From: Chromatiales bacterium
GTDB lineage: Bacteria > Pseudomonadota > Gammaproteobacteria > JAGRCI01
Reading direction: 5' to 3'
DNA: 64,000 bases
Assembly: GCA_020445565.1 (NCBI GenBank)
Contig: JAGRGI010000081.1
Coordinates: 4,412-68,411 of the forward strand
The notes under the pieces are model-generated. The model saw nothing but the letters and a program-made list of their open reading frames with translations, was not told the origin of the DNA and made no database searches. Below, piece by piece: positions 17,504-29,583 of this stretch (its first letter is position 1; each line of letters opens with the position of its first letter). The translations under genes and the position numbers were made by a program.

Positions 17504-18814
17504 TCAATGCGAAAAAATATCCCTGCGCCCGAATCGTATGAGCATGGCCCTGTAGCGTTTATACCGGGCGGCCTCGGTCTGTATCCACTCGTCCATACCC
17601 GCCGGATTCGTCGCTTTTTGTGCCCCATTGTTCGTCTGTCCGGTCGATCCGCCATCCCCGAAAAAATCGATTTGCCGCCGGAACAAGTCGACCCGATTGT
17701 TGCCAGTGATGGTGGCTTCCGCGGCCCGGACTAATTCGCCCGCCCTCGCCTCGTTGCCTTGGTCGATCTCCACTGCTGCCAAGTCCAGATACAAAAATGA
17801 TCGGAAGTCGGACGAAAGGCTGCACGAAGGATATTTTTCGGCGAGGAAGACTGCCTCGCTCAGCGATCCCGACGCCGCGTCCGCCCTTCCCTGCAGATGG
17901 TAAAGCTTCCCCAATTTTCGCCGGAACCGGACAACCTCCGAAATCTCATATGGTTCCGGCTTCCGCAGCTCTGCCTCCAAGACTTCGATCGCACCCTGAA
18001 TGTCCAAGGTGTTCAAGAGGCTCTCTATCAAGTTGTCCACAATCGAGCCCCTGGGAACCGCAAACGGGCCCGCTACCTGTTCCCGTATACGCAGGGCATG
18101 CCTAAGGGCAGTCTCGGCCATCTGGAGATCATGGAAGAGAACAAGGTATCCAAGCGACGCGAGCAGGTCGGATTCCAGGTTGGAATCACGTCCTAACCGT
18201 TGTTGTAGTGAGGTGATCGTAACCTCGATGCAAGGCTGCACTCGGGAGCCCCAGGATAACGTGCTCAGGAATTCGTCGAACCAGGCGACGGCATCGGGCA
18301 GGTCGGTGAGCGACAGCGAGTCGAACACGGATTCGATGTCTTTCAGATCCGCTCGCCACTCGCTATCGTCCGCAGGTGCACAGGGAGTATCCATCCAGGG
18401 GGTGTAGCCACCCCGCTCGGCACTGCATGCAATATGGTAGCGTTGCAGTACCAGATCCAGGCGGCGCGGATCATCGTGGGCAAGCACCGGCGAATTCCAG
18501 GCGCGCAGCAACAATTCCCTCGCTCGCATCCTCACCCAGTTGTCGCTCAACCGGTCTATATGCCAGCGCGCCGCGGCCACCGTCCGCTCCCATTGTTCCA
18601 TGGCGCTTGTGGCCTGCTCGATCTCCTTCTCGGACCAGTAATGCGCCTCGGGCAAGACAAAGCGATCCCACGGATGGACGCGCGCCTCGGTGCGAATGGC
18701 CAACATCGCCATCTGCCAATAGTGGGGATAGGCCTCCAACACGGCCGCTACCACGATGAGGACTGCAAATATAATGATGGAAATCCTGTTTTTCACCTTG
18801 ATCTCCCTGCTCAA
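17504..18814 (-). CDS. Membrane-anchored hypothetical protein (N-terminal TM, helical-repeat body) lying 70 bp downstream of the immunity gene
   Basis: 436-aa ORF with an N-terminal signal-anchor (IIIFAVLIVVAAVL) and no recognisable catalytic motif. Same strand as the toxin/immunity module. Confidence 0.5.
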   Translation of the reverse strand: MSREIKVKNRISIIIFAVLIVVAAVLEAYPHYWQMAMLAIRTEARVHPWDRFVLPEAHYWSEKEIEQATSAMEQWERTVAAARWHIDRLSDNWVRMRARELLLRAWNSPVLAHDDPRRLDLVLQRYHIACSAERGGYTPWMDTPCAPADDSEWRADLKDIESVFDSLSLTDLPDAVAWFDEFLSTLSWGSRVQPCIEVTITSLQQRLGRDSNLESDLLASLGYLVLFHDLQMAETALRHALRIREQVAGPFAVPRGSIVDNLIESLLNTLDIQGAIEVLEAELRKPEPYEISEVVRFRRKLGKLYHLQGRADAASGSLSEAVFLAEKYPSCSLSSDFRSFLYLDLAAVEIDQGNEARAGELVRAAEATITGNNRVDLFRRQIDFFGDGGSTGQTNNGAQKATNPAGMDEWIQTEAARYKRYRAMLIRFGRRDIFSH

Positions 18815-18884: not shown

Positions 18885-19889
18885 CTATCGAAAATGCCAG
18901 TTGGCGCCGATTTCGTCGGCATACAGACGATTCTCGGCGATCTCGCGCAGGTACAACGATTCCATCAGTTGGGCGAAATTGCGGTAGCGGCGGAAGCCGT
19001 CGTACATGCCCTTGCTCAGCCACGCCTCCCACTCGCCGTGCTCATCCACCACCGCCGGGTTGAGCATCACGATGCCGCGCACGTCGCTGAACTCGCCGCA
19101 GATCACCAGGGCGCCGGGGATGTACTCGCGGCGCATGTCGGTGAGCGGGTCCTGGCTGGCGCTGTAGTTGAAGTAGCGCTCGTCCGGGACCGGGTCGTCG
19201 GGAACGAATTCACCAGCCATGTCCACCATCCACTCCTGGTACTCGGTGTTGCGCAAATAGTCGATGCGGTCGACCCAGGTTAGGTAGATGTCGCCCAGTA
19301 CCCAGCCGTTGGTCAGGCGCAGGAATTCCTTATACGACGGCGGCAGGGTCGCACCCAGGCGTTGCTCGGCGGCGCGGATCTGCTCATCGGTGGCCGGCGG
19401 GCGGCCGGAGGAGCTGTTGCGGATGATGTCGCCCCAGGAGAAGATGTCGACCAGGGTGTCGGGGCGTCGGCGTTTCATTGAGGCGAAATCTTCTCGGTAG
19501 AATTGCGTGAGCAACTCCGCAGCTTGCATGGCTAGGCGCCGGCCCTCCGGCGTGTTTCCGGGATACGGTATGCGGCCCCGATGAAGTTCTCGCGGCAAAT
19601 GCACGCCCGTTCGCTCTTCATATGCCGCGAGCTCCTCGTCCAGCGGGGTCACCATCTTGCCCTCCCAGAGCAAAATGGCGCGGGTAATCTCCAATAGTTC
19701 AAAGTCCCAGTCTTCAAGGAACTTCTTCCAACCTACTCTGGCAATGGAAACCGGTTCCGGGAGGTAAGCGGTCGCCTTCTGCATCCAGATGCGTCGGGCA
19801 GTGGGGTCTTCGGGGTTCATACAGGCCACCAGAGTAAATGTAAAGAATATGACGCGAAGCAATCGGAGTCGACAGATTGGCGTCGACAT
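18885..19889 (-). CDS. SUKH-1 (SMI1/KNR4) family immunity-like lipoprotein
   Basis: Internal ATG at 19889, 14 nt after the toxin stop, with lipoprotein signal MSTPICRLRLLRVIFFTFTLVAC (lipobox LVAC). C-terminal SUKH motifs ATDEQIRAAEQRLGATLPPSYKEFLRLTNGW and ...ALVICGEFSD. The tracker's longer ORF overlaps the upstream toxin gene in another frame. Confidence 0.65.
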   Translation of the reverse strand: MSTPICRLRLLRVIFFTFTLVACMNPEDPTARRIWMQKATAYLPEPVSIARVGWKKFLEDWDFELLEITRAILLWEGKMVTPLDEELAAYEERTGVHLPRELHRGRIPYPGNTPEGRRLAMQAAELLTQFYREDFASMKRRRPDTLVDIFSWGDIIRNSSSGRPPATDEQIRAAEQRLGATLPPSYKEFLRLTNGWVLGDIYLTWVDRIDYLRNTEYQEWMVDMAGEFVPDDPVPDERYFNYSASQDPLTDMRREYIPGALVICGEFSDVRGIVMLNPAVVDEHGEWEAWLSKGMYDGFRRYRNFAQLMESLYLREIAENRLYADEIGANWHFR

Positions 19890-19902
19890 GCCGGCCCCGT
19901 AC

Positions 19903-22900
19903 CTAACGCCTCCCATAGCAGACCTCCCCGCCGGGCAGTGCACCGTGGGTAACGGAACCCTCGGACAAATCCGTGCGAACCTCGTAGGGGTCGTTTGCAG
20001 AGATTCGACATTTGGCATAGAACTGCCGGAGGGTCCCGCCCTGGGCTTGGTTTTGACGGCGGGGCACCAGTCGCAGCGATACTCCGTCGGTGATGCCGAC
20101 CCCAGCCCCTTGGCGGGTGGAATAGAATGGATACTCGTCGCAATCGGGCTCGACATCATTCTTGTCCTTAAACTGGTCCCGATTGTTCCTGCTACACACA
20201 ATCTCCTTCCGATACCAAGTCCGATCCCCACCTGAGTCGTCCCCGTTGTCGACATTGGCCGTGATGGTCCCGATCGATGAGGTATAACCAAGGAACTCCA
20301 GCGTGCTGGGCGACCCACCGGCTTGGGCGTCCTGGACATGTGAGGTGATCTCGGTCATCGGCGTCAAACGGGTAGATTGTGAGGCCGACACGTAGACCTT
20401 GCAGTCGCCTTCGTCTGCCATGGCGGTGGCGGTACTCGCGGCGCCGAGGGGCAAGCTCCAGCGCCCGAGCTCGCGCAGAATCGGTAAAAAGAAACGGGCA
20501 AGGACGGCCAACGCGGGGGCAAGTGCGCCTCCCGCGGCACCTCCAGACGCCACTATTATGGCAAGAAGCACAATGGCGGCGATGATGGCCCACCACGGTA
20601 TCCGCACCCCGACCCGTTCTCCGTCTCCCGAATCGATAGAACAGGACGGCTGTTGCCCAAATGAAGGCGGTACCTCGAGCGGTCGCACAAAGCCGACGAA
20701 ATTGCCCATTCCCACGAGTGCCAACGACTTGTCCAATTCGCTCTGTGCGGCTCCGCCGTTGCTCCCGCCGCGAATGCGGTAGGCGCCCGCCCCGGTCTGC
20801 GGATCGATGAGCAAATAACCCTCGCCACGCCAGTCACCCGATTGGATCTGACCGGCACTCACCAGGGCCTGATGGCCGTTGGCGACGTGGAAACGCAGAT
20901 CCTCCCGTGTCTCGGGCGACAACGACAGCGTTGGGAGCACGCTTTCCAGGTTGTTTTCGGTCAGAGAGTGCAGGCGCTGCCCCTGCCGTTGGGCCAGGGC
21001 TAGGGCACTTACGGCGGAGACGCTGGTGGCAGGGTAGTCGGCGTTACCGATATATGCGACGGGTACCTCGTATTCCAGGGCCGACCCGATGGAGCCCAGG
21101 ATCTCGCGCAAGCGGGGCTCGTCCAAGTCGCCGCCGGCAAGCGGCACGACGGTTTCGCCCAGGTAGTCGATATCCACCGCCACACCACCCAAGTTCACGT
21201 TGCGCGGTGCGCCCAGAACGATCTCGGCATCCAGTTCGGTCGAGAAGGTGCCAAAAGACGGGTGGCGGTAGGTGACGCCCAGCCCCATCAAGGACAGGGT
21301 CTCCAGCGCTGCGTCCACATTCGCGAACCAGCTGCGGGCCATGCTGGGGAAAACGTTCTCTGGATCGTTGTACACGCTGTCGGTCAATTCCTGCGCGGGG
21401 ATGGAGCCGGGATTCACGGCGAGATACAGCCACTCGCCGGCATCGGGCTGGTTGACGGCCACTGCCTGGCCGCCGCCGAGTCGGTCGATGGTGGTCACGC
21501 TTACCAGAGCCTGGCCCAGGGTGTAGGGACCGGCACTGGCGACGACCTGGCTGTCTAGCCGCAGCTCGGCGATCAGCCGAATGCGGTGGCCGGGCAGGCG
21601 GCGGGGCAGATCTCGGAAGGTGGCCGTGGAATCGCTGGGATCGGGCAGTTGTTCCTCAATGAGCCGGCGATCGGCATCGCTCGCGGGGCGATAGCGCAAT
21701 TGCAACTGTCGCCCAACCAGTTCCGGGAGAGCGATCCGGTGGTACAGCTGGGGGATCTCGTGGGTGCGCTCGGCCTCGTTTCGATACAGGGCGAAGGAAA
21801 AGGCGATGCGGGCGCTGTCCGGCAGTTCAGAGGCCACGGCAAGGTCTTGATGGCCGGAGCCCATGAGGCCGGATGGGAGGACGGGAAAGTCCATACGTGC
21901 GATGGCGCGGCCTCGCCAGGATTGCTCCTCGTCGAAAACGGCGTCCGCGAGGGAGTCCTCCCAACGGGGTAGGAGACTGGCGAAGTCCACCTGTTCCAAA
22001 CCTTCAATGGCCCCGTCAGCCGGATTGATACTCAAACCGGACAACGCCGTGCGTATCTCCTCGCGCACGGACTCAACCGCCGGATTCTGGAGGTCTGGTG
22101 CGGCAGAGTACTCGTATCGCTTCAGGCTGGCGTCAAGCGGCAGCCAAGTGTCCCCCTCCCTTTGAACGGCGCCTCGTGAGGGAAAGTAGTCGATCCACGC
22201 CTCCACCCAGACATGTTCGAGACGGATGGCGACGATCCGCCCGCCACTCGCCAAACCGGAGGCCGGGATGCCGCCTTGGCCGAGCACAGCCAAAACCTGC
22301 TCAGGGCGTTCGACCCCACCTAGCCAGTTCATGGCCAGATCCACCGGCAGATCGATGGTGCCGAATCGGTAGCGGGCCTGGATGCCAGCGACCCGGTACA
22401 AAGCAACCAGCAGACTGCTGATGTCGAAGGCGTTGCCTTGGCCCGTCTGGAGCGTGTAGTCGGCACCCTGGATGGAACCCCAGGTGGGCACATAGTCGAT
22501 CTGGTTGCGTACCCAGTTGTAGATCGCCACTGGCTGGTTGCCGAGTTGCTCGGCAAGTTGACGTATGGCCGGAGTAAAACGCACCTCGGTGCTCTCCCCG
22601 AGATAGTCCTCACCGCCAATCGCCTGTTTTTCAGGTGCGGAAGTCGGTGGCAACATCGCATTCCGGTACACCTTCAGTTCGGTAGCCGAGTTGGCCGGTT
22701 TTCGTGCTTCGGGGACGATCTGACCGAAGGCAAGCGGCGGCTTACCCGCCATGGGGATAGCGGGAATCGGGACCTCGGCCTGAGCCACCGATTTCTCATT
22801 CGCGGCATGCACCGGGCCGAGGAGTGCGCAGTTGAATATCTCCAGGGTCAGCAGAGCGACGAACTTGAAAAACCGGCGGTTCGGATTCAACCAGGCCACG

Positions 22901-22977
22901 CATCGCCAAGCCGATGTCCGTTCGGTGTCTACGGCTGCGGCGTGGGTGGCTCGATGACGATAGGTCGACGTATTCAT
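19903..22977 (-). CDS. Polymorphic-toxin-like secreted protein: signal peptide, transglutaminase-like domain lacking the catalytic Cys, long central region, one TM helix, and a C-terminal NucA/NucB-type DNase domain
   Basis: Transglutaminase-like core GQGNAFDISSLLVALYRVAGIQARYRFG...EHVWVEAWIDY...WLPLDAS, with no Cys in the catalytic motif. TM helix WWAIIAAIVLLAIIVASGG. C-terminal DCDEYPFYSTRQGAGV...LRLVPRRQNQAQGG resembles the NucB motifs DRDEWPMA..GGAG..VRYVTPSDNRGAGS. The ATG overlaps the stop of the upstream giant gene (ATGA). Confidence 0.65.
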   Translation of the reverse strand: MNTSTYRHRATHAAAVDTERTSAWRCVAWLNPNRRFFKFVALLTLEIFNCALLGPVHAANEKSVAQAEVPIPAIPMAGKPPLAFGQIVPEARKPANSATELKVYRNAMLPPTSAPEKQAIGGEDYLGESTEVRFTPAIRQLAEQLGNQPVAIYNWVRNQIDYVPTWGSIQGADYTLQTGQGNAFDISSLLVALYRVAGIQARYRFGTIDLPVDLAMNWLGGVERPEQVLAVLGQGGIPASGLASGGRIVAIRLEHVWVEAWIDYFPSRGAVQREGDTWLPLDASLKRYEYSAAPDLQNPAVESVREEIRTALSGLSINPADGAIEGLEQVDFASLLPRWEDSLADAVFDEEQSWRGRAIARMDFPVLPSGLMGSGHQDLAVASELPDSARIAFSFALYRNEAERTHEIPQLYHRIALPELVGRQLQLRYRPASDADRRLIEEQLPDPSDSTATFRDLPRRLPGHRIRLIAELRLDSQVVASAGPYTLGQALVSVTTIDRLGGGQAVAVNQPDAGEWLYLAVNPGSIPAQELTDSVYNDPENVFPSMARSWFANVDAALETLSLMGLGVTYRHPSFGTFSTELDAEIVLGAPRNVNLGGVAVDIDYLGETVVPLAGGDLDEPRLREILGSIGSALEYEVPVAYIGNADYPATSVSAVSALALAQRQGQRLHSLTENNLESVLPTLSLSPETREDLRFHVANGHQALVSAGQIQSGDWRGEGYLLIDPQTGAGAYRIRGGSNGGAAQSELDKSLALVGMGNFVGFVRPLEVPPSFGQQPSCSIDSGDGERVGVRIPWWAIIAAIVLLAIIVASGGAAGGALAPALAVLARFFLPILRELGRWSLPLGAASTATAMADEGDCKVYVSASQSTRLTPMTEITSHVQDAQAGGSPSTLEFLGYTSSIGTITANVDNGDDSGGDRTWYRKEIVCSRNNRDQFKDKNDVEPDCDEYPFYSTRQGAGVGITDGVSLRLVPRRQNQAQGGTLRQFYAKCRISANDPYEVRTDLSEGSVTHGALPGGEVCYGRR

Positions 22978-25900
22978 CGACGGGGGCCTCCTTGCGGATG
23001 GGTAACGGTTCGGTGTCGCAGGCCGATCCAGACGGTCATCAGGATCAGCAACGCCAGGTTGGCGGAGTTCAACAGCGGCACGGCGAGAGGTTCGACTATG
23101 CCTTGGGGCAGGACAACCTGGAAATAGGCATAGGACAGGGTCTGCCAGTCTTCGTCGGCCTTGCGCAGACGACGCGGGTCCGGTGCGGGGCGTGCTTGCA
23201 GCAGACAGGCGTAGTTGCCGGGGGGCAGTTCGGCGGTGTCGATGGCTTCCTGGTGTTCTGGGGCGTCGCCGTTGAGGGTGTCCAGGTTGCGGATTCGATC
23301 GAGCACTACCTCGCCGGTCTCCAGGTTGACGAGCCGCTGACGGATTTCCAGGTTGGTCAGGGTTCCGCCGAGAGTGCTGAGTCGATCCATGCAGGCGTTC
23401 GCCTCGCCGCGGACGACCTGGGGCTTTTCGGTCTCGATCAGGCCGTTCAGGCTGCGATTGAAGGCTTGGGCGACGGTAAAGCCGGCCTCGTCGGTGGCAA
23501 GCAGGCCGAACCGGATATCCACGGCCTGGGCATGAACCTGGTAGGCGCCGGGTTCGGCTCCCGAAAGGGGTAGCGTCAGGCCATGTGGGGTTTGTTGGCC
23601 TGGGGCGAGTTGGCCAATGGGAATGCCTTGCCGCAGGATATCCGTACCCCGGGGATCGACTACCTGGACCTGCAAGGTAATGTCGGAAAACAGTGCGTCC
23701 GTACTGAGATTTCGCAACAGGTTGTCGATACGCACCAGGTCGTTGGCGTTGTACTCGGCCCGGTCGGTGGTGGTGCGCAGACTGGCTTGCCGGTCGGCGA
23801 GCAGGGTCGAGACGATTTGGAAGGGGGCGAGGTCTTCGTCGATCGGTTCGCCACGGTCGTCATACAGCAGACCGTGCAGTTGGTAGTCTCCGGTCAGGAT
23901 GCCGTTGGCGGGCCAGTCGACGCCGATGGGATGGCTGGTCCCCACGCTAAGATTTTCCAGATCCACGTCGTCGAAGCGGGTCACGACTTGGCCGTTGCTG
24001 TCTTCCACTTGCAGTACGGCGGTAAAGGTTCCGCTAAGTGCGCCGGTATTTAAGATGAGGGCACTGAGGTGAGCGGTGGCGTCCGAGGTGTAAGTCGGGG
24101 CATCGGTGGCGACGGTGAGGCTCCCGACCGTGGCGAGCGTCGCCAGGGGGATGGCCATTTGGTTGTTGACCTCGTTGCATTCGTCGATGGCATTGGCGGC
24201 ATCGACGACGACGTAGAGCTCGTTCTGGTTGAACAGTTCTACGGCATCGAGCGAAAGGTCACGATATTCGCCCACCGCCAGGGGCGCGACGATTTGGTCG
24301 CCGAGCAGGATTCCGCCGACGGCCGGATCGCCTTGATAAAAGGTCAGGCGGGCCTCGCCGGTGGGGGTAAGGCCGCCGTTGCCCACGCGTACCGTCAGAC
24401 GGGGACGCGCTTGCGAGGTCTGATCGAAGCGCAACAGGGATACGCTCAGATCCGGCAGGGCCAGTGGATCGCGGCCGGGGAAGGCGTTGAGGCGATAGGT
24501 ATTGTGGACCAGCCAGGAGGGTTGTTCGTGCGTCGGGATGGTGCCGTCGTCGTTGATGTTGGTGATGTGGTAGCTGTGCTGGTTCCAGATGGCGCGGGTG
24601 GGTGCCCAGTCGTCGTTGGCGGACTCGAAGGCATAGACGCCGGAGTCCACCGCCGGGTTGCCGTTGAAGATTCGTGCATCGGAACAGACCAGCAGTTCGG
24701 CATGGCCATCATTGTCGATGTCGGCGACGACCGGCATCTCCGTGCCGGTTCCAGAGAGCACGGGTCGAGCGTGCAGCACCTGACCATCGCTACCACGGTA
24801 GATACGCAGGAACCGCTCGTCGCGATACACGACTTCTGCGGCTCCGTCCCCGTCGAAGTCGAATGACGTCGAGCCAGTAACGGTAGAACTGTAGTCCTGT
24901 GTCGGCGACGACCAAAGAATGGAGCCGTCGGTGTCGAATACTGTGTAGCTGCTGGCCCCCGCGACAGCGATCTCTGGCCTGCCGTCACCATCAAAATCCG
25001 CAATGGTTGGCGCACCGCCATATCCCCCCCCGGAAGCACAACCCTGCCGCTGATTGCATGCCAAAGGCTCGCACTTGATCCGTCGTGCTCCAACAAATAT
25101 ACGTAGCCACCGCCAACGACCACAATTTCGGCAAAATCATCCTCGTCGAAATTGCCGACTGCGACGAAACCTTCCGGGACACCACTCCCCTCCAACACCA
25201 ATCCGTGACGGTCGTATGAATACACACTGCTCCCGGCAACGATTTCCGGGACGCCATCGAGATCGACATCCGCCACAGCAGAAACAACGGTATACAGGTT
25301 GAATCCCGAGTGACCTCCGAGGGCTCTGCCATCGGCGAGAACGTGTCCCTGGGCATCGTAAACGACCGCACCGACCACGATTTCCGGGACGCCATCGGCG
25401 TCCAGGTCGGCAATGACAATCGATCCGCCGGAGTCAGAGCGACCGGGCAAAGTCAGCTCGTCGCTCGCCCATTTGAATGTCAGGTCATTCTCGAAGGCGA
25501 GAAGCTGTTTGCCATTTTGGGAAGCGCCGATCACTTCCGGCACGCCATCGCCATCGATGTCGCCAATGGCAAGTTCGGTGATTGCCCCAACCAATTGATT
25601 GGGTGGGCTGGTGTACAGGGTTCTCCCGTCGTCTCCGCTTATCGCATAGATCTGACCGCCGTTGAATTGTCCATTTGGTACGGTGGGAAACACAATGTCG
25701 GGGACATCGCGAACACCGATGTGCCCATCGCCGTTGTCGTCGGTAAGATTTGCGACTAGGGGCGTGGAGATGACATCAATCCGCTCGTTCTCAAGGGCAT
25801 GAAATTTTACGACCGGATCGAATGTTCCAGGCGGCGATACTGGCAACCGGCACAGAGCAGACGAACTACCGACGTTATTCCCCTCCTCCGCCTCATCGAT

Positions 25901-28900
25901 CCGCAAGTCGCTGTCGACCATGGCAAAGATGGGCGCATCACGGAAACGGGTCGTGCCGTTGACGAGGATGTCGATGGTCAGCGACGCGCCACCGGCCAAC
26001 CCATTCGGCAGGGTTCGGGCGGCCAGGGCATTATCGGTGCCGGGATCGTATCGGCCGTTGCCGTTGAGGTCTTCGAACAGGCTGACACGCGCCGGCAGTT
26101 CGGCCGCGGCCAGGGCGAGGTTTTCCACACGGACTTGGACGATACCGCTGATGTCAAGCGTGCGTGGATCGCTTTGCAGGCCTGCGGTATCGATGGCGGA
26201 AACCGTCAAGTCTGGTTTGGGGCGGTAGGAGCCGATGGAGACATGAACGGTGTCATTATCCACGCAACCCCGGTCGTCGATCACAAACAGGGTGACGTCC
26301 CGTTCCTGCGCGGAGGTGAACCGGTGCTGCGCGCTCGCCCCGGTGATGTCGATCTCGTTGTCGCCGTCCAAGTCCCAGGCGTAGGTGACGATGTTGCCCT
26401 GGGAGGCGCTAGCGTTGAATTGGATAGCGGTTTGCGCATCGGCAACGATATCCTGCCCTGCGTCAGCGGTTGGCTTTTCTGCGCAACGCATTCCGCCAAC
26501 GGCGTCAATTTCAGCATCGGCGGACTGCCAACCTTCGAGCGGACTATGGTCGTCTACGTCGCTCCAACTGGTACGGTCTTGGGTGTCAAAAATCGAGATG
26601 GAATTATCCGCCTTCAGGCGAACATACCGATACCCCGTGCCACGAAAGGCGTACAGTCCGGCGTAGTCATCGATGTTTGCCGTTTCGCCGCATAGGGCAC
26701 GATTGTCCGACCAGCCTTGAACGTAAATGCTGACCAAAGTCGCCTGCGTCCAACCGTCCGGGAAAATCGATTCCGGATCGTCAGATCCCCAAATGGTGTA
26801 CTCAACACCTTCCTGCGGATAGGGGGCATGATCTACGAAGGGAAATACCGTAACGGCAAAGAATCGCTCACCCATATCCCAGATAACGTCGTTGTCGTCG
26901 GATGTCGATTCGAGCGGATCAAAAGGATCATAGCCAGCGGCCATGGACCGAAAATCAAGACCGTTCGCTGCATACGCAATATCCTGCAAACTATTCTCCC
27001 TGATGGTGTCAAAAGCAAAACCGCACCCCATTGGCGATTGAGCTGTCCAGGTATGAGGGCGTCCTCCCGAAACATGGCGTCCCAGGATATAGTTGTCCGG
27101 CACCAACGCATCGCGCGTCAGACCATGGAGTGTCTGCACGTCCGTGACGACATAGGTCGTCGCACTGTTCTGCAGAACCTCAACGGTAATACTTTCCTGC
27201 GCAATTCCTCCGTAGGCGTCGACCACAGTCACAGCGAAGTCATGGTTACCCACCTGCGCCAAGGTCGGCAGCCAACGAATCTGCCCGGTGTTGGAATCGA
27301 TCTGCATCCCTGCCGGGGCCTCGGCCAAACCGAAACGCAACGCGTCGCCCTCCGGGTCGCTGGCGGCTACGGTATTTAGGTAGGTCTCCCCCACCCGAGC
27401 CTGAGTCGGGGCGGCGGACAGAATCGTCGGCGGTTGATTCGAGGACAGCGGGGCGAAGGCAGCCATGGCCAGGTCCGTCAGGTCGACGACACTCCCCGCC
27501 GGGGCTTGCACGGACAGCGAAACCGGGTGGTAGCCGTTCAGGTTGAACGTAAAATCGAGGTCGCCGGAGGTGATCCCGCCGATCTCGAAGGTGCCGGCGG
27601 CGTCGGATAGGGCGGATGGCCGACCGTCGATGCTGACGGTGACATCCGCCAGGGGGAACCGCGTAACGCTATCGACGACACTGCCGTACACCCGAACCGC
27701 GTCCGCAACCTGCTCAAGACGGGGCGCGAATACCAACACCTCGCCCGCCGCCAGGGTGGCATGACCGGAGGCACTGTGATAACCGTTTCGTTCGGCGACG
27801 ATGTCGATGCTGCCGGTGGACAGGTTGTCGAATGTGAAGCGGCCGTGGGAGTCGGTGAGCACACGGGTTCGGCCGACGATACGGATGTCCACATTGGGCA
27901 AGGGTGCCCCCGAGTGACTGTCGGTGACGGTTCCATACACCCGGGCGGTGGTGACGTCGTGCGTCGGCGTGAGCCGCAGCTCGCCCAGATCGAGCACCTG
28001 TCCGGCGAGCAGGTCCACGGCGGTGGACAGCAGGCCATAGCCGACCCGCTGTACCGTGAGCCGATATTGACCCTCATCGAGGTTCGAAACGACGAACCCG
28101 CCATCGGGATCCGTACCAAGACCCAGATTCTGCGGCCCGGTCAGTTGGAGAGATACCCCGGCCAGGGGCTGGCCAGTAGAGCCGTCGCTCACCTGGCCCC
28201 GCAGCATTCCCTGTTGTGGGTCGATTGCGGGCGAGGCCACATCGGCCAGCGCTCGCAGTGCCAGGGCGGTCTGGTACGCGTCACCGTTCCAACTGCCGTC
28301 GACGTTCTGGGCGGCGCGCAAGCGTTCGATAGCGGGTTCCAACGTTGTCCGATCCGACAAATGGACGGCGAGGAAGAGCAGTGCCAAAGCGGTTTCGTGG
28401 GTCTCGGCCCAGACACCTTGGGCGTTGCGTCGGGCCAGCAGGAAGCCCTCGGCGGCTTGCAGAGCGCTGCGAAGTTCGTAAAGCGGACGGAACCACCACA
28501 AGATACGTGCCACCAGGGCGGTAACGTATATCGAGGAGGCATTGCCGCTTTCGCCCCAGCCCCCATCATCGCGCTGGACGTTCTGTAGATAACCGACGGC
28601 ATAGGCCGCCGCCTCGGTGTGCGTATAGCCGGCTGCGGCCAGACTCTCCAAAGCAAAGGCGGTATCCAGGACGCTGCTGTAGTAGCCGACCGCAAAGCCG
28701 AAACCGCCGTCGACATTTTGGCGACTCAGCAGTTGTGAAACCCACTCAGAAGAGTCCAGGCCGGTTTCCGCGAGCGCAATAATCTGGCGGGACAGGTATT
28801 CAGTGCTCAAGGCATCGGTATCGGCGCCGAGCAGAAAATCGCGGGCTGCCATGCTGGCAGGATCCGCGCCCGACTCCAGCAGCACCAGGGCACGCAGGGA

Positions 28901-29110
28901 CTCTGCCGTAGACTGAGTGGCGGTGGCGACATCGTCGGTCGTTGTGAGACTGCCATCGGGCGAGGAACGGCTGCCCAACCAGGCGATGCCCTCCGCAGTA
29001 CCTGCCCATCCAGGCATCACAGGCAAGCAAACCAATAGACAAAAAAGCAGGGACGCAATCGCGGACGGTTTTCGGCATGGCGGCCGAATCCATGAGTTAC
29101 GGGGTTCCAT
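22974..29110 (-). pseudogene. Giant secreted multidomain surface/adhesin-like protein (~2,040 aa if fused), split into two overlapping ORFs (24446..29542 and 22974..25064) by a frameshift at a homopolymeric G tract
   Basis: N-terminal signal peptide. Prenyltransferase/terpenoid-cyclase-like repeats (QNVDGGFGF, QRDDGGWGE, QNVDGSWNG). Three carboxypeptidase-regulatory-like domains. A cadherin-like 'putative Ig' domain, a PKD domain and two CARDB domains. At least 10 FG-GAP/VCBS repeats (DxDGDGxxE) spanning the frameshift. A C-terminal hydrophobic helix plus basic tail. Likely ATG starts at 29110 or 29125 (after MEPRNSW.../signal); the tracker's 1698-aa ORF begins further upstream at 29542. Confidence 0.6.
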
Positions 29111-29407
29111 AGAGCAGGATTCCATTCGGTTGAAACGACTAATGTCGCGAAGTACACCGCTTTCCCCGTCTGCGGTCAAGACCATTGCGTGTACGAAAAT
29201 TCTTACAAACTCAACATCTTGGGAGAGATAATCTTCGATAGTCAAAACACTGGCGACACAGACGAGGCAGTGCAATTCAAGGAGAATGCCGCCTTGAACG
29301 CGGTGCTTCTTGGCAGGCAATCGAGGTTTGCGTAACGGTGAGATTTTGACTGAAACCCCGGGCCTGCGTTGGCCATGTTGATGTGAGGCCAAGGGCCTGC
29401 ATTGACT

Positions 29408-29471
29408 TCGGCGCACATCCGGGCTTTCACCTCCCTGTGGCTGGATTCCGCCGCTCCCTGGCGGAATGACG
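29408..29471. repeat. Conserved ~64-nt element, copy 2 (hairpin ATTCCGCC-N7-GGCGGAAT with SD and ATG on the minus strand). It lies ~290-360 bp upstream of the giant surface-protein gene and ~110 bp upstream of divergent hupE.
   Basis: About 58 of 64 nt are identical to 2985..3048. The stem is conserved while the loop differs, which is a compensatory pattern. On the minus strand, GGGAGGTGA then an ATG open a 58-codon ORF that is not conserved beyond MCAE. Confidence 0.6.
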
Positions 29472-29583
29472 GTACCGCCGACCATCGTCTGCATAGGAAG
29501 TGCCGCCCCCCACCAGCCTTGCCGCATTGCGGGAATGGGCATAGGATTGCCGAACTAAACTCAGCATCTCCGGAGGAAATGCC

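Follow-up and report, generated by a model that had tools for sequence, protein, structure and literature searches.

The SUKH gene described here (18885-19916, minus strand) is part of a 64,000-nucleotide stretch of contig JAGRGI010000081.1, called the window in the following, which derives from a metagenome-assembled genome (MAG) of a member of the Chromatiales (Gammaproteobacteria). It follows directly on a toxin gene that ends in a NucA/NucB-type DNase domain, and our best reading, held with moderate confidence, is that it encodes an exported, lipid-anchored immunity protein capturing this DNase in the periplasm. That an exported form would be made at all, be it as the sole product or as one of two isoforms, appears very likely. 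Both statements rest on sequence comparison and structure prediction. Surveys describe SUKH immunity proteins as cytoplasmic (PMC3482391, PMC3113570), and a table of Salmonella type VI secretion system (T6SS) proteins gives the signal of every SMI1_KNR4 immunity protein as "No" (PMC10469887). A preliminary description of the gene, made from the DNA sequence alone, agreed with PMC3482391 on this normal localization and raised the idea that the present protein is periplasmic and tethered. This idea has become our best reading through an in-frame lipobox upstream of the called start in an orthologue (locus L001) and through signals on distant, DNase-linked members.

Whether the product is a lipoprotein depends on the start codon used, because a start at the internal Met33 deletes the signal. 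The preliminary description had placed the start at ATG 19889, which is in frame, yields a 334-aa form beginning with MSTPICRLRLLRVIFFTFTLVAC and provides a lipobox of the PROSITE PS51257 type. However, this codon lacks a Shine-Dalgarno (SD) sequence comparable to that of ATG 19916, which lies nine codons further upstream, and an exact-sequence look-up retrieved the 334-aa form from no protein collection. ATG 19916 is the more likely start: direct reading of the sequence places the SD sequence GGGGAGG (19923-19929, minus strand), the strongest of all candidate starts, 6 nucleotides (nt) upstream of it, and five independent assemblies (Logan and ENA) contain calls of the resulting 343-aa protein (P0001). 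Both starts share the signal …CRLRLLRVIFFTFTLVA/C (the slash marks the cleavage site) and the mature protein, while Met33 (ATG 19820; 19818-19820, minus strand), situated directly after the lipobox Cys, removes the signal entirely. Thus the proposed lipobox stood, whereas the proposed start is probably not the one used. A longer form of 484 aa had rightly been doubted: it shares 437 nt with the toxin gene in another reading frame, and a collection of 15 billion proteins does not contain it.

As lipoprotein criteria we used a positively charged n-region, an uncharged hydrophobic h-region and a lipobox of the form [LVI][ASTVI][GAS]C with the Cys about 15-35 residues from the start. Read from ATG 19916, the predicted signal peptide comprises aa 1-32 (MGGVRYGAGMSTPICRLRLLRVIFFTFTLVAC; 19821-19916, minus strand) and agrees with this scheme in …CRLRLLRVIFFTFTLVAC, with a PS51257-type match at residues 22-32 by pattern and Kyte-Doolittle hydropathy. 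The lipobox L-V-A-C occupies 19821-19832 (minus strand) and its Cys 19821-19823; this is Cys32 from ATG 19916 and Cys23 from ATG 19889, a codon that itself falls within the leader, and cleavage is predicted before Cys32 (…TLVA/C). Residue +2 after the Cys is Met, not Asp. In place of a twin-arginine translocation (Tat) motif (S/T-R-R-x-F-L-K-like) the protein has R-L-R-L-L-R with no adjacent RR pair, and a search of NCBIfam gave neither a Tat-signal match nor a family match. The AlphaFold2 (AF2) model is consistent with this division, as residues 1-41 are disordered and residues 45-343 form one confident globule. A six-frame translation of the window contains 7.8e-5 lipoprotein-signal-like strings per codon, and the chance that one of them lies no more than about 20 codons from any given gene start is about 1.6e-3, or on the order of 1e-3 per locus.

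An analogous leader was found in L001, the only close orthologue (49% identity for the immunity protein and 53% for the toxin). There the gene caller began at an internal Met (P0002), but the open, in-frame upstream leader (1935-2051) encodes …FVRFSSIIGLFVWVLLSAC with a canonical lipobox (LLSAC), and its GTG start overlaps the TGA of the toxin gene (GTGA). The leaders of the window and L001 have signal properties in common but little sequence, a pattern typical of the evolution of functional signal peptides. The same omission affects a third locus, so that the signal was missed in the window (19818-19916; 311-aa call by the NCBI Prokaryotic Genome Annotation Pipeline, PGAP) and, by Logan gene calls, in L001 and L102 (2260-2343, P0071). 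Consequently, deposited SUKH proteins of this kind look cytoplasmic because their annotation starts at the internal Met after the signal. The five other assemblies of the window locus are DNA-identical and thus provide no polymorphism by which the coding status of the leader could be judged.

The SUKH domain proposed in the preliminary description is well supported. The match to Pfam PF09346 (SMI1_KNR4, SUKH-1) spans aa 174-319 when counted in the 343-aa form and residues 165-310 in the 334-aa form (18960-19397, minus strand); it scores 52.1 bits against a cutoff of 25.4 (E = 1.2e-13) and covers profile positions 1-124 of 125. The AF2 model reached a mean predicted local distance difference test score (pLDDT) of 84.9 and a predicted template modelling score (pTM) of 0.83, and Foldseek matched it with probabilities of 0.97-1.0 to the Knr4 core (5J1B), BF1740 (3D5P) and YobK (2PRV), which points to the SUKH alpha+beta fold. 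A sequence search of the PDB with the mature SUKH protein gave no match.

In contrast, the low-complexity linker of about 130 aa that had been assumed between signal and SUKH domain was rejected. The entropy of residues 33-173 is normal (4.05 bits vs. 4.11 bits in the SUKH core), no low-entropy 12-mer occurs in this region, and at least 17 homologues conserve it (YLP..I..GW..FL..W … GG..YP). Furthermore, AF2 places helices at residues 63-85, 93-103 and 123-150, with pLDDT values mostly above 84, that pack with the SUKH core. Only about 12 residues after Cys32 are left as a tether. The conserved region (aa 45-173; 19398-19784, minus strand) is thus a predicted helical N-terminal module of about 130 aa, which defines a SUKH subfamily. 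Within it, aa 88-110 (19587-19655; MVTPLDEELAAYEERTGVHLPRE) resemble the protein's own SUKH N-terminal motif RPPATDEQIRAAEQRLGATLPPS, I..AE..LG..LP.S (hhalign probability 70%), which suggests that the module may derive partly from an internal duplication of that motif.

The SUKH gene overlaps the co-oriented toxin gene (19903-22977, minus strand; 1024 aa, MCB1876441.1) by 14 nt, the toxin stop codon TAG (19903-19905) lying 11 nt downstream of the immunity ATG. The open reading frame (ORF) of the toxin was confirmed by Pfam, its L001 orthologue and GenBank identity. From the N-terminus, it comprises an export signal or anchor (aa ~27-57, …NRRFFKFVALLTLEIFNCALLGPVHA/A; 22807-22899, minus strand) recognized by hydropathy and sequence, a transglutaminase-like core (Transglut_core, PF01841, E = 4e-17; aa 142-283; 22129-22554, minus strand), two adjacent hydrophobic segments (aa 793-811 and 816-834; 20476-20601, minus strand) that hydropathy predicts as a putative membrane hairpin, and a C-terminal DNase_NucA_NucB domain (PF14040, 54.1 bits vs. 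a cutoff of 23.8; aa ~858-1024; 19906-20406, minus strand). The Wimley-White window sums of the two segments are -11.2 and -4.4, the second being only moderately hydrophobic. The toxin signal, …NPNRRFFKFVALLTLEIFNCALLGPVHA/A, has a twin-arginine-like n-region and a Glu within its h-region; the homologous toxins of L054 and L069 have Sec-like signals instead. Within the DNase domain, the CDEYPF motif with its acidic DE dyad is invariant in six homologues, and the cysteines C860, C928, C946, C990 and C1020 are conserved, which fits a DNase domain folding outside the cytoplasm. A sequence search of the PDB with the DNase domain found nothing. The structural prototype of this family, the secreted enzyme NucB, has a Cys66-Cys100 disulphide that includes the Cys of CDEYPF and is dispensable for activity (PMC5758888). 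PF14040 corresponds to the "Tox-ComI" of Zhang et al. (2012), who list Imm-SUKH among its immunity families (PMC3482391). Taken together, the partner toxin is a predicted Sec/Tat-exported, membrane-anchored protein with transglutaminase-like and C-terminal NucA/NucB-family DNase domains, and the SUKH gene encodes its predicted immunity partner.

Export signals are not restricted to the window and L001. An exhaustive HMMER search delivered some 15 more members that possess the N-terminal module; a second homologue search with alignment A3 added no new N-extended members, and scans of genome and metagenome contigs with the two-orthologue alignment A2 yielded nothing. Several of these members carry signals of differing types: P0203 (L007) combines a twin-arginine-like start with a lipobox (MKRRTFLG…LVGC), P0073 (L009) begins with MNRRLILK… and P0151 (L056) has the lipobox PAGC. 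P0071 (L102) was called without a signal, yet an in-frame upstream start, in an ATGA overlap with the toxin stop, leads to MNRRSFIRLFALLGIGASGFF… (MNRRSFIRL…). Signals are also present on P0062, P0063, P0069, P0105, P0115, P0145, P0156 and P0184, and the pattern M-x-R-R-x-[FLIW]-[LI] occurs in P0203, P0062, P0069, P0073, P0145 and the extended P0071. P0062 is an orphan with no adjacent toxin gene. Wherever the upstream gene could be read, it ends in PF14040 (9/9 loci: the window, L001, L054, L007, L009, L053, L056, L069 and L102), and in six exported loci the signal-encoding starts lie between 12 nt before and 14 nt after the toxin stop codon. As additional observations, WP_455204223.1 from Kaarinaea lacus clusters at 90% identity with P0145, one of the proteins with a twin-arginine-like leader, and a lipoprotein-type SUKH is annotated in RefSeq for Gallaecimonas sp. 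GXIMD4217 (CP149925.1; L058, 6001-6708; WP_341502512.1, MDMKTPLLFACSLLTASC…). The latter lies in an orphan immunity region rich in insertion sequences (IS), downstream of a 3683-aa RHS/PT-HINT toxin gene and an Imm42 gene.

The tie between immunity proteins with export signals and NucA/NucB-type DNases appears to extend beyond this subfamily. In a Hahella MAG (L063/L064), an RHS-PF14040 toxin gene is followed, 1 nt after its stop codon, by a gene (2389-3090 in L063) for a lipoprotein beginning with MQKMNLRLIVALIICVLLSAC… that matches SMI1_KNR4 with E = 6e-13. In Marinobacter sp. DUT-1 (L085, 1734-2423), a HEAT-repeat lipoprotein (MDKLLRLLVFLSVSMLLAC…) is encoded directly after an RHS-PF14040 toxin. 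When genomes were scanned for CDEYPF, an immunity candidate was present at six proteobacterial loci, and in four of them it is a cytoplasmic SUKH protein (L059, L066, L069, L099). When 45 metagenome SUKH-1 loci were picked by the motif LP.SYK.FL alone, and not by a signal, a single one, L009, had an N-terminal signal, and it alone had a PF14040 neighbour; for L049 a signal is a borderline call. Besides, several SUKH homologues are fused to HEAT repeats (P0012, P0025, P0033, P0042), and in actinobacterial loci of Micromonospora, Plantactinospora and Phytohabitans (L068, L086, L087, L088, L090) large PF14040 proteins are followed by secreted proteins of about 300 aa, which in L068, L087 and L090 contain Ricin-B lectin and DUF2690 domains according to Pfam.

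Based on these features, the following course of events can be proposed. Translation would start at ATG 19916 and would be coupled to the end of the toxin gene. Signal peptidase II would remove the 31-residue signal, and Cys32 would be lipidated. Residue +2 being Met and not Asp, the sorting rule known from E. coli points to the outer membrane as the destination. The mature protein of about 312 aa would then reside in the periplasm on its tether of about 12 residues, with the helical module and the SUKH-1 core forming one globule. There it may bind the DNase domain of its own toxin, or of a toxin from neighbouring cells, before this domain crosses the inner membrane to reach the DNA.

Several observations weigh against this periplasmic reading. 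PGAP starts the gene at ATG 19820, which leads to a signal-less "SMI1/KNR4 family protein" of 311 aa (MCB1876440.1). The GC content at third codon positions (GC3) is 0.59 in the leader vs. 0.80 in the rest of the SUKH gene. The nearest relatives after L001, P0057-P0060, are all signal-less: stop codons are found two to seven codons upstream of the starts of P0057 (L008) and of P0059 and P0060 (both L054), while the leader of P0058 (L053) is non-hydrophobic. The SUKH gene of Methylococcaceae locus L069 starts directly behind a stop codon. Thus, the expectation that orthologues share the lipobox is only partly borne out, as L001 keeps it in frame whereas P0057-P0060 lack a signal and PGAP begins the window gene at Met33. 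Moreover, P0057 begins with MNPWED… and the window protein reads C32/MNPEDP…, so that Met33 aligns with the true start of P0057, and the 82 nt between toxin stop and Met33 are close to the 79-nt spacer of L054. On the side of the toxin, the DNase domain may not face the periplasm. The DNase is without an obvious periplasmic substrate, and a benefit of neutralizing it there is one that we only infer. Finally, two hydrophobic segments in front of the DNase go along with an exported SUKH protein in the window and L001, and one segment with a cytoplasmic SUKH protein in L054 and L069, but L102 combines one segment with an exported form. A rule by which export of the immunity protein tracks these segments was dropped for that reason, the Wimley-White sum being a crude measure as well.

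One way to accommodate both starts is that the gene encodes dual isoforms, an exported lipoprotein from ATG 19916 and a cytoplasmic SUKH protein from ATG 19820, so that both compartments would be guarded against the DNase. We regard this as unlikely. A Met codon preceded at 4-9 nt by an SD-like motif follows 1-9 residues past the signal in each of the five N-extended exported loci that were inspected (GGTG in the window, 6 nt upstream of Met33; GGAG in L001; AGGTG in L102; GAGGTG in L009; GGAG in L007). However, the motif of the window is weak, the positions of the internal starts differ between the window and L001, and such Met codons with their SD motifs may be relics of ancestral starts. 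L102 and L009 share the conserved peptide K-R-C-N, encoded by AA(A/G)AGGTGCAA(C/T), which is itself an SD sequence. The codons for K-R-C-N-M read AAAAGGTGCAAC-ATG in L102 (~2325-2343) and AAGAGGTGCAAT-ATG in L009 (~870-888), in both cases at the end of twin-arginine-like leaders. This conservation may be at the RNA level, because the codons form a near-consensus Shine-Dalgarno sequence 4 nt before the internal ATG. The internal starts were also those chosen by gene callers and PGAP, and the same toxin type is elsewhere paired with purely cytoplasmic SUKH proteins. Yet the pattern comes from only about three independent lineages, and among the short exported forms no internal Met follows the signal of L056, while that of L063 is preceded by no more than a 3-nt SD-like match.

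According to a second alternative, the protein is an ordinary cytoplasmic SUKH protein with its true start at Met33, and the lipobox stretch is an untranslated spacer that is open by chance. The PGAP call, the alignment of Met33 with the start of signal-less P0057, the similar spacer lengths (82 vs. 79 nt) and the low GC3 of the leader all speak for it, as does the fact that the frame is open far upstream anyway. Nevertheless, we consider this reading quite improbable: a full lipoprotein signal should arise by chance in about one per thousand such loci, yet it recurs in the diverged L001, signals of differing types recur in L007, L009, L102, L056 and L063, and the strongest SD sequence precedes ATG 19916. 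A third alternative places the locus outside interbacterial warfare: the toxin would be a nuclease resident in the envelope that acts, like B. subtilis NucA, on DNA that is incoming or extracellular, and the lipoprotein SUKH would be its periplasmic regulator or inhibitor, like Nin. In favour of it, the prototypes of the NucA/NucB family are nucleases that are secreted or serve competence and that come with an inhibitor of their own (PMC3482391, PMC5758888), the window toxin has no RHS, PAAR or CdiA-type delivery domains, no secretion-system genes were seen, and the hydrophobic segments may hold the DNase at the producer's inner membrane. Nevertheless, this reading is very improbable in our judgement: the pairing of this DNase with exported immunity proteins is also found with RHS toxins, which are delivery scaffolds, several SUKH paralogues stand in a row at L054 and L102, as is typical of toxin-immunity arms races, and transglutaminase-like domains are listed among the processing peptidases of polymorphic toxins (PMC3482391).

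Returning to the proposed lipid-anchored, periplasmic immunity protein, its signal appears to be a derived feature. In a rough neighbour-joining tree without support values, exported forms are scattered among cytoplasmic ones, and the window and L001 are nested within a cytoplasmic clade. Because of this scatter and the signal-less P0057-P0060, export signals look derived and repeatedly gained. For the window we infer that the signal arose when the gene was extended upstream into what had been the spacer between toxin and immunity gene, and such intergenic spacers appear to have supplied signal peptides repeatedly. Two of the loci compared here are complex. In L054 (3791-8552), the gene for a transglutaminase-DNase toxin homologue of 1146 aa is followed by the signal-less SUKH paralogues P0060 and P0059; genes for a Y1 transposase (IS200-like) and for the reverse transcriptase of a group II intron come next, which makes this a poly-immunity array accompanied by mobile elements. 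L102, similarly, contains two SUKH genes and a DUF5953 gene.

Within the window, the minus-strand ORF of the SUKH gene ends at 18885 (stop codon 18885-18887); it is documented by Pfam, Foldseek and identical calls across assemblies and sits in a minus-strand operon with housekeeping genes on both flanks. Exact GenBank matches of window proteins are dihydroxy-acid dehydratase, acetylornithine deacetylase, the toxin and CorA (MCB1876437, -438, -441 and -450, respectively). The next gene, 88 nt downstream of the SUKH gene (17507-18796, minus strand; MCB1876439.1, 430 aa), encodes an N-terminal hydrophobic segment and gave sub-threshold TPR matches only. Its product shows no similarity to that of the partial gene downstream of the L001 orthologue, and the gene therefore probably does not belong to the toxin-immunity module. 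Upstream of the toxin gene, two very large ORFs in different frames at 22974-29542 (minus strand) share about 620 nt. The first (24446-29542, 1698 aa) contains three CarboxypepD_reg domains, He_PIG, PKD and FG-GAP, and its tail has the appearance of out-of-frame junk; the second (22974-25064, 696 aa) contains FG-GAP, CARDB and MG2. The pair looks like a frameshift, caused by an assembly error or marking a pseudogene, in a single gene for a surface protein of about 2190 aa, whose stop codon overlaps the toxin ATG (ATGA).

Immunity to nuclease toxins is usually taken to be cytoplasmic, where the DNA is. Here, in contrast, a SUKH clade and a HEAT-repeat lipoprotein that are predicted to be exported are tied to NucA/NucB-type DNases. 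If this holds true, NucA/NucB toxins could be stopped in the periplasm and would have an obligatory, vulnerable periplasmic stage, for instance folding, disulphide formation or membrane translocation. If dual isoforms were made instead, one gene would guard both compartments that such a toxin must cross, with the upstream start giving a lipoprotein or a Tat-type protein. The locus may also exemplify a signal peptide born from an intergenic spacer. Since PGAP and gene callers miss the signal (the window, L001, L102), surveys of annotated proteins would under-count exported immunity proteins. The pairing of SUKH with ComI/NucA-NucB toxins is known already. In the literature searched, which is incomplete, no report of an exported SUKH protein or of lipoprotein immunity to PF14040 toxins was found; it likewise lacks descriptions of immunity-protein export of this kind, of its repeated occurrence with NucA/NucB DNases and of the systematic mis-annotation.

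The closest known systems are the Imm-SUKH/Tox-ComI pairs of polymorphic toxins (Zhang et al. 2011, 2012; PMC3113570, PMC3482391). They share with the window a SUKH-1 gene directly 3' of a toxin gene ending in a ComI/NucA-NucB DNase with the DE motif, and the poly-immunity arrays of some relatives (L054, L102) are a further likeness. However, their immunity proteins are cytoplasmic and globular, whereas the window protein and several relatives have a lipobox or twin-arginine-like signal and the helical module of about 130 aa; likewise, the scaffold of the window toxin is built of transglutaminase-like and hydrophobic segments and not of RHS, CdiA or PAAR domains. The single lipoprotein immunity family noted by Zhang et al., Imm65 (PMC3482391), which accompanies Tox-JAB-1 in Bacteroidetes, has the same combination of signal peptide and lipobox on an immunity protein to a polymorphic toxin. 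Since its fold is unrelated, its toxin a JAB protein and not a DNase, and its phylum another one, this is an analogy only. Export, lipid anchor and periplasmic neutralization also characterize the lipoprotein that confers immunity against VgrG2b of P. aeruginosa (PMC6899460). T6SS effectors that act in the periplasm target the cell wall or the membrane, while the window toxin is a DNase with a cytoplasmic lethal substrate. Immunity proteins of the Tli, Tai and Tsi types are periplasmic or lipoprotein T6SS immunity proteins. The NucA-Nin pair of B. subtilis (ComI-ComJ) resembles the window in that a DNase of the same family, exported and membrane-associated, is encoded directly upstream of its inhibitor. 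Nevertheless, Nin/ComJ differs from SUKH proteins in its fold, no lipobox is reported for it, and it serves competence and not toxicity. Last, the colicin DNase-Im pairs (E9/Im9, E7/Im7) comprise a high-affinity inhibitor of a ββα-Me-type DNase, encoded, as in the window, downstream of the toxin. Unlike the window SUKH protein, colicin Im proteins are cytoplasmic four-helix proteins that are released in complex with the toxin and have neither an export signal nor a lipid anchor.

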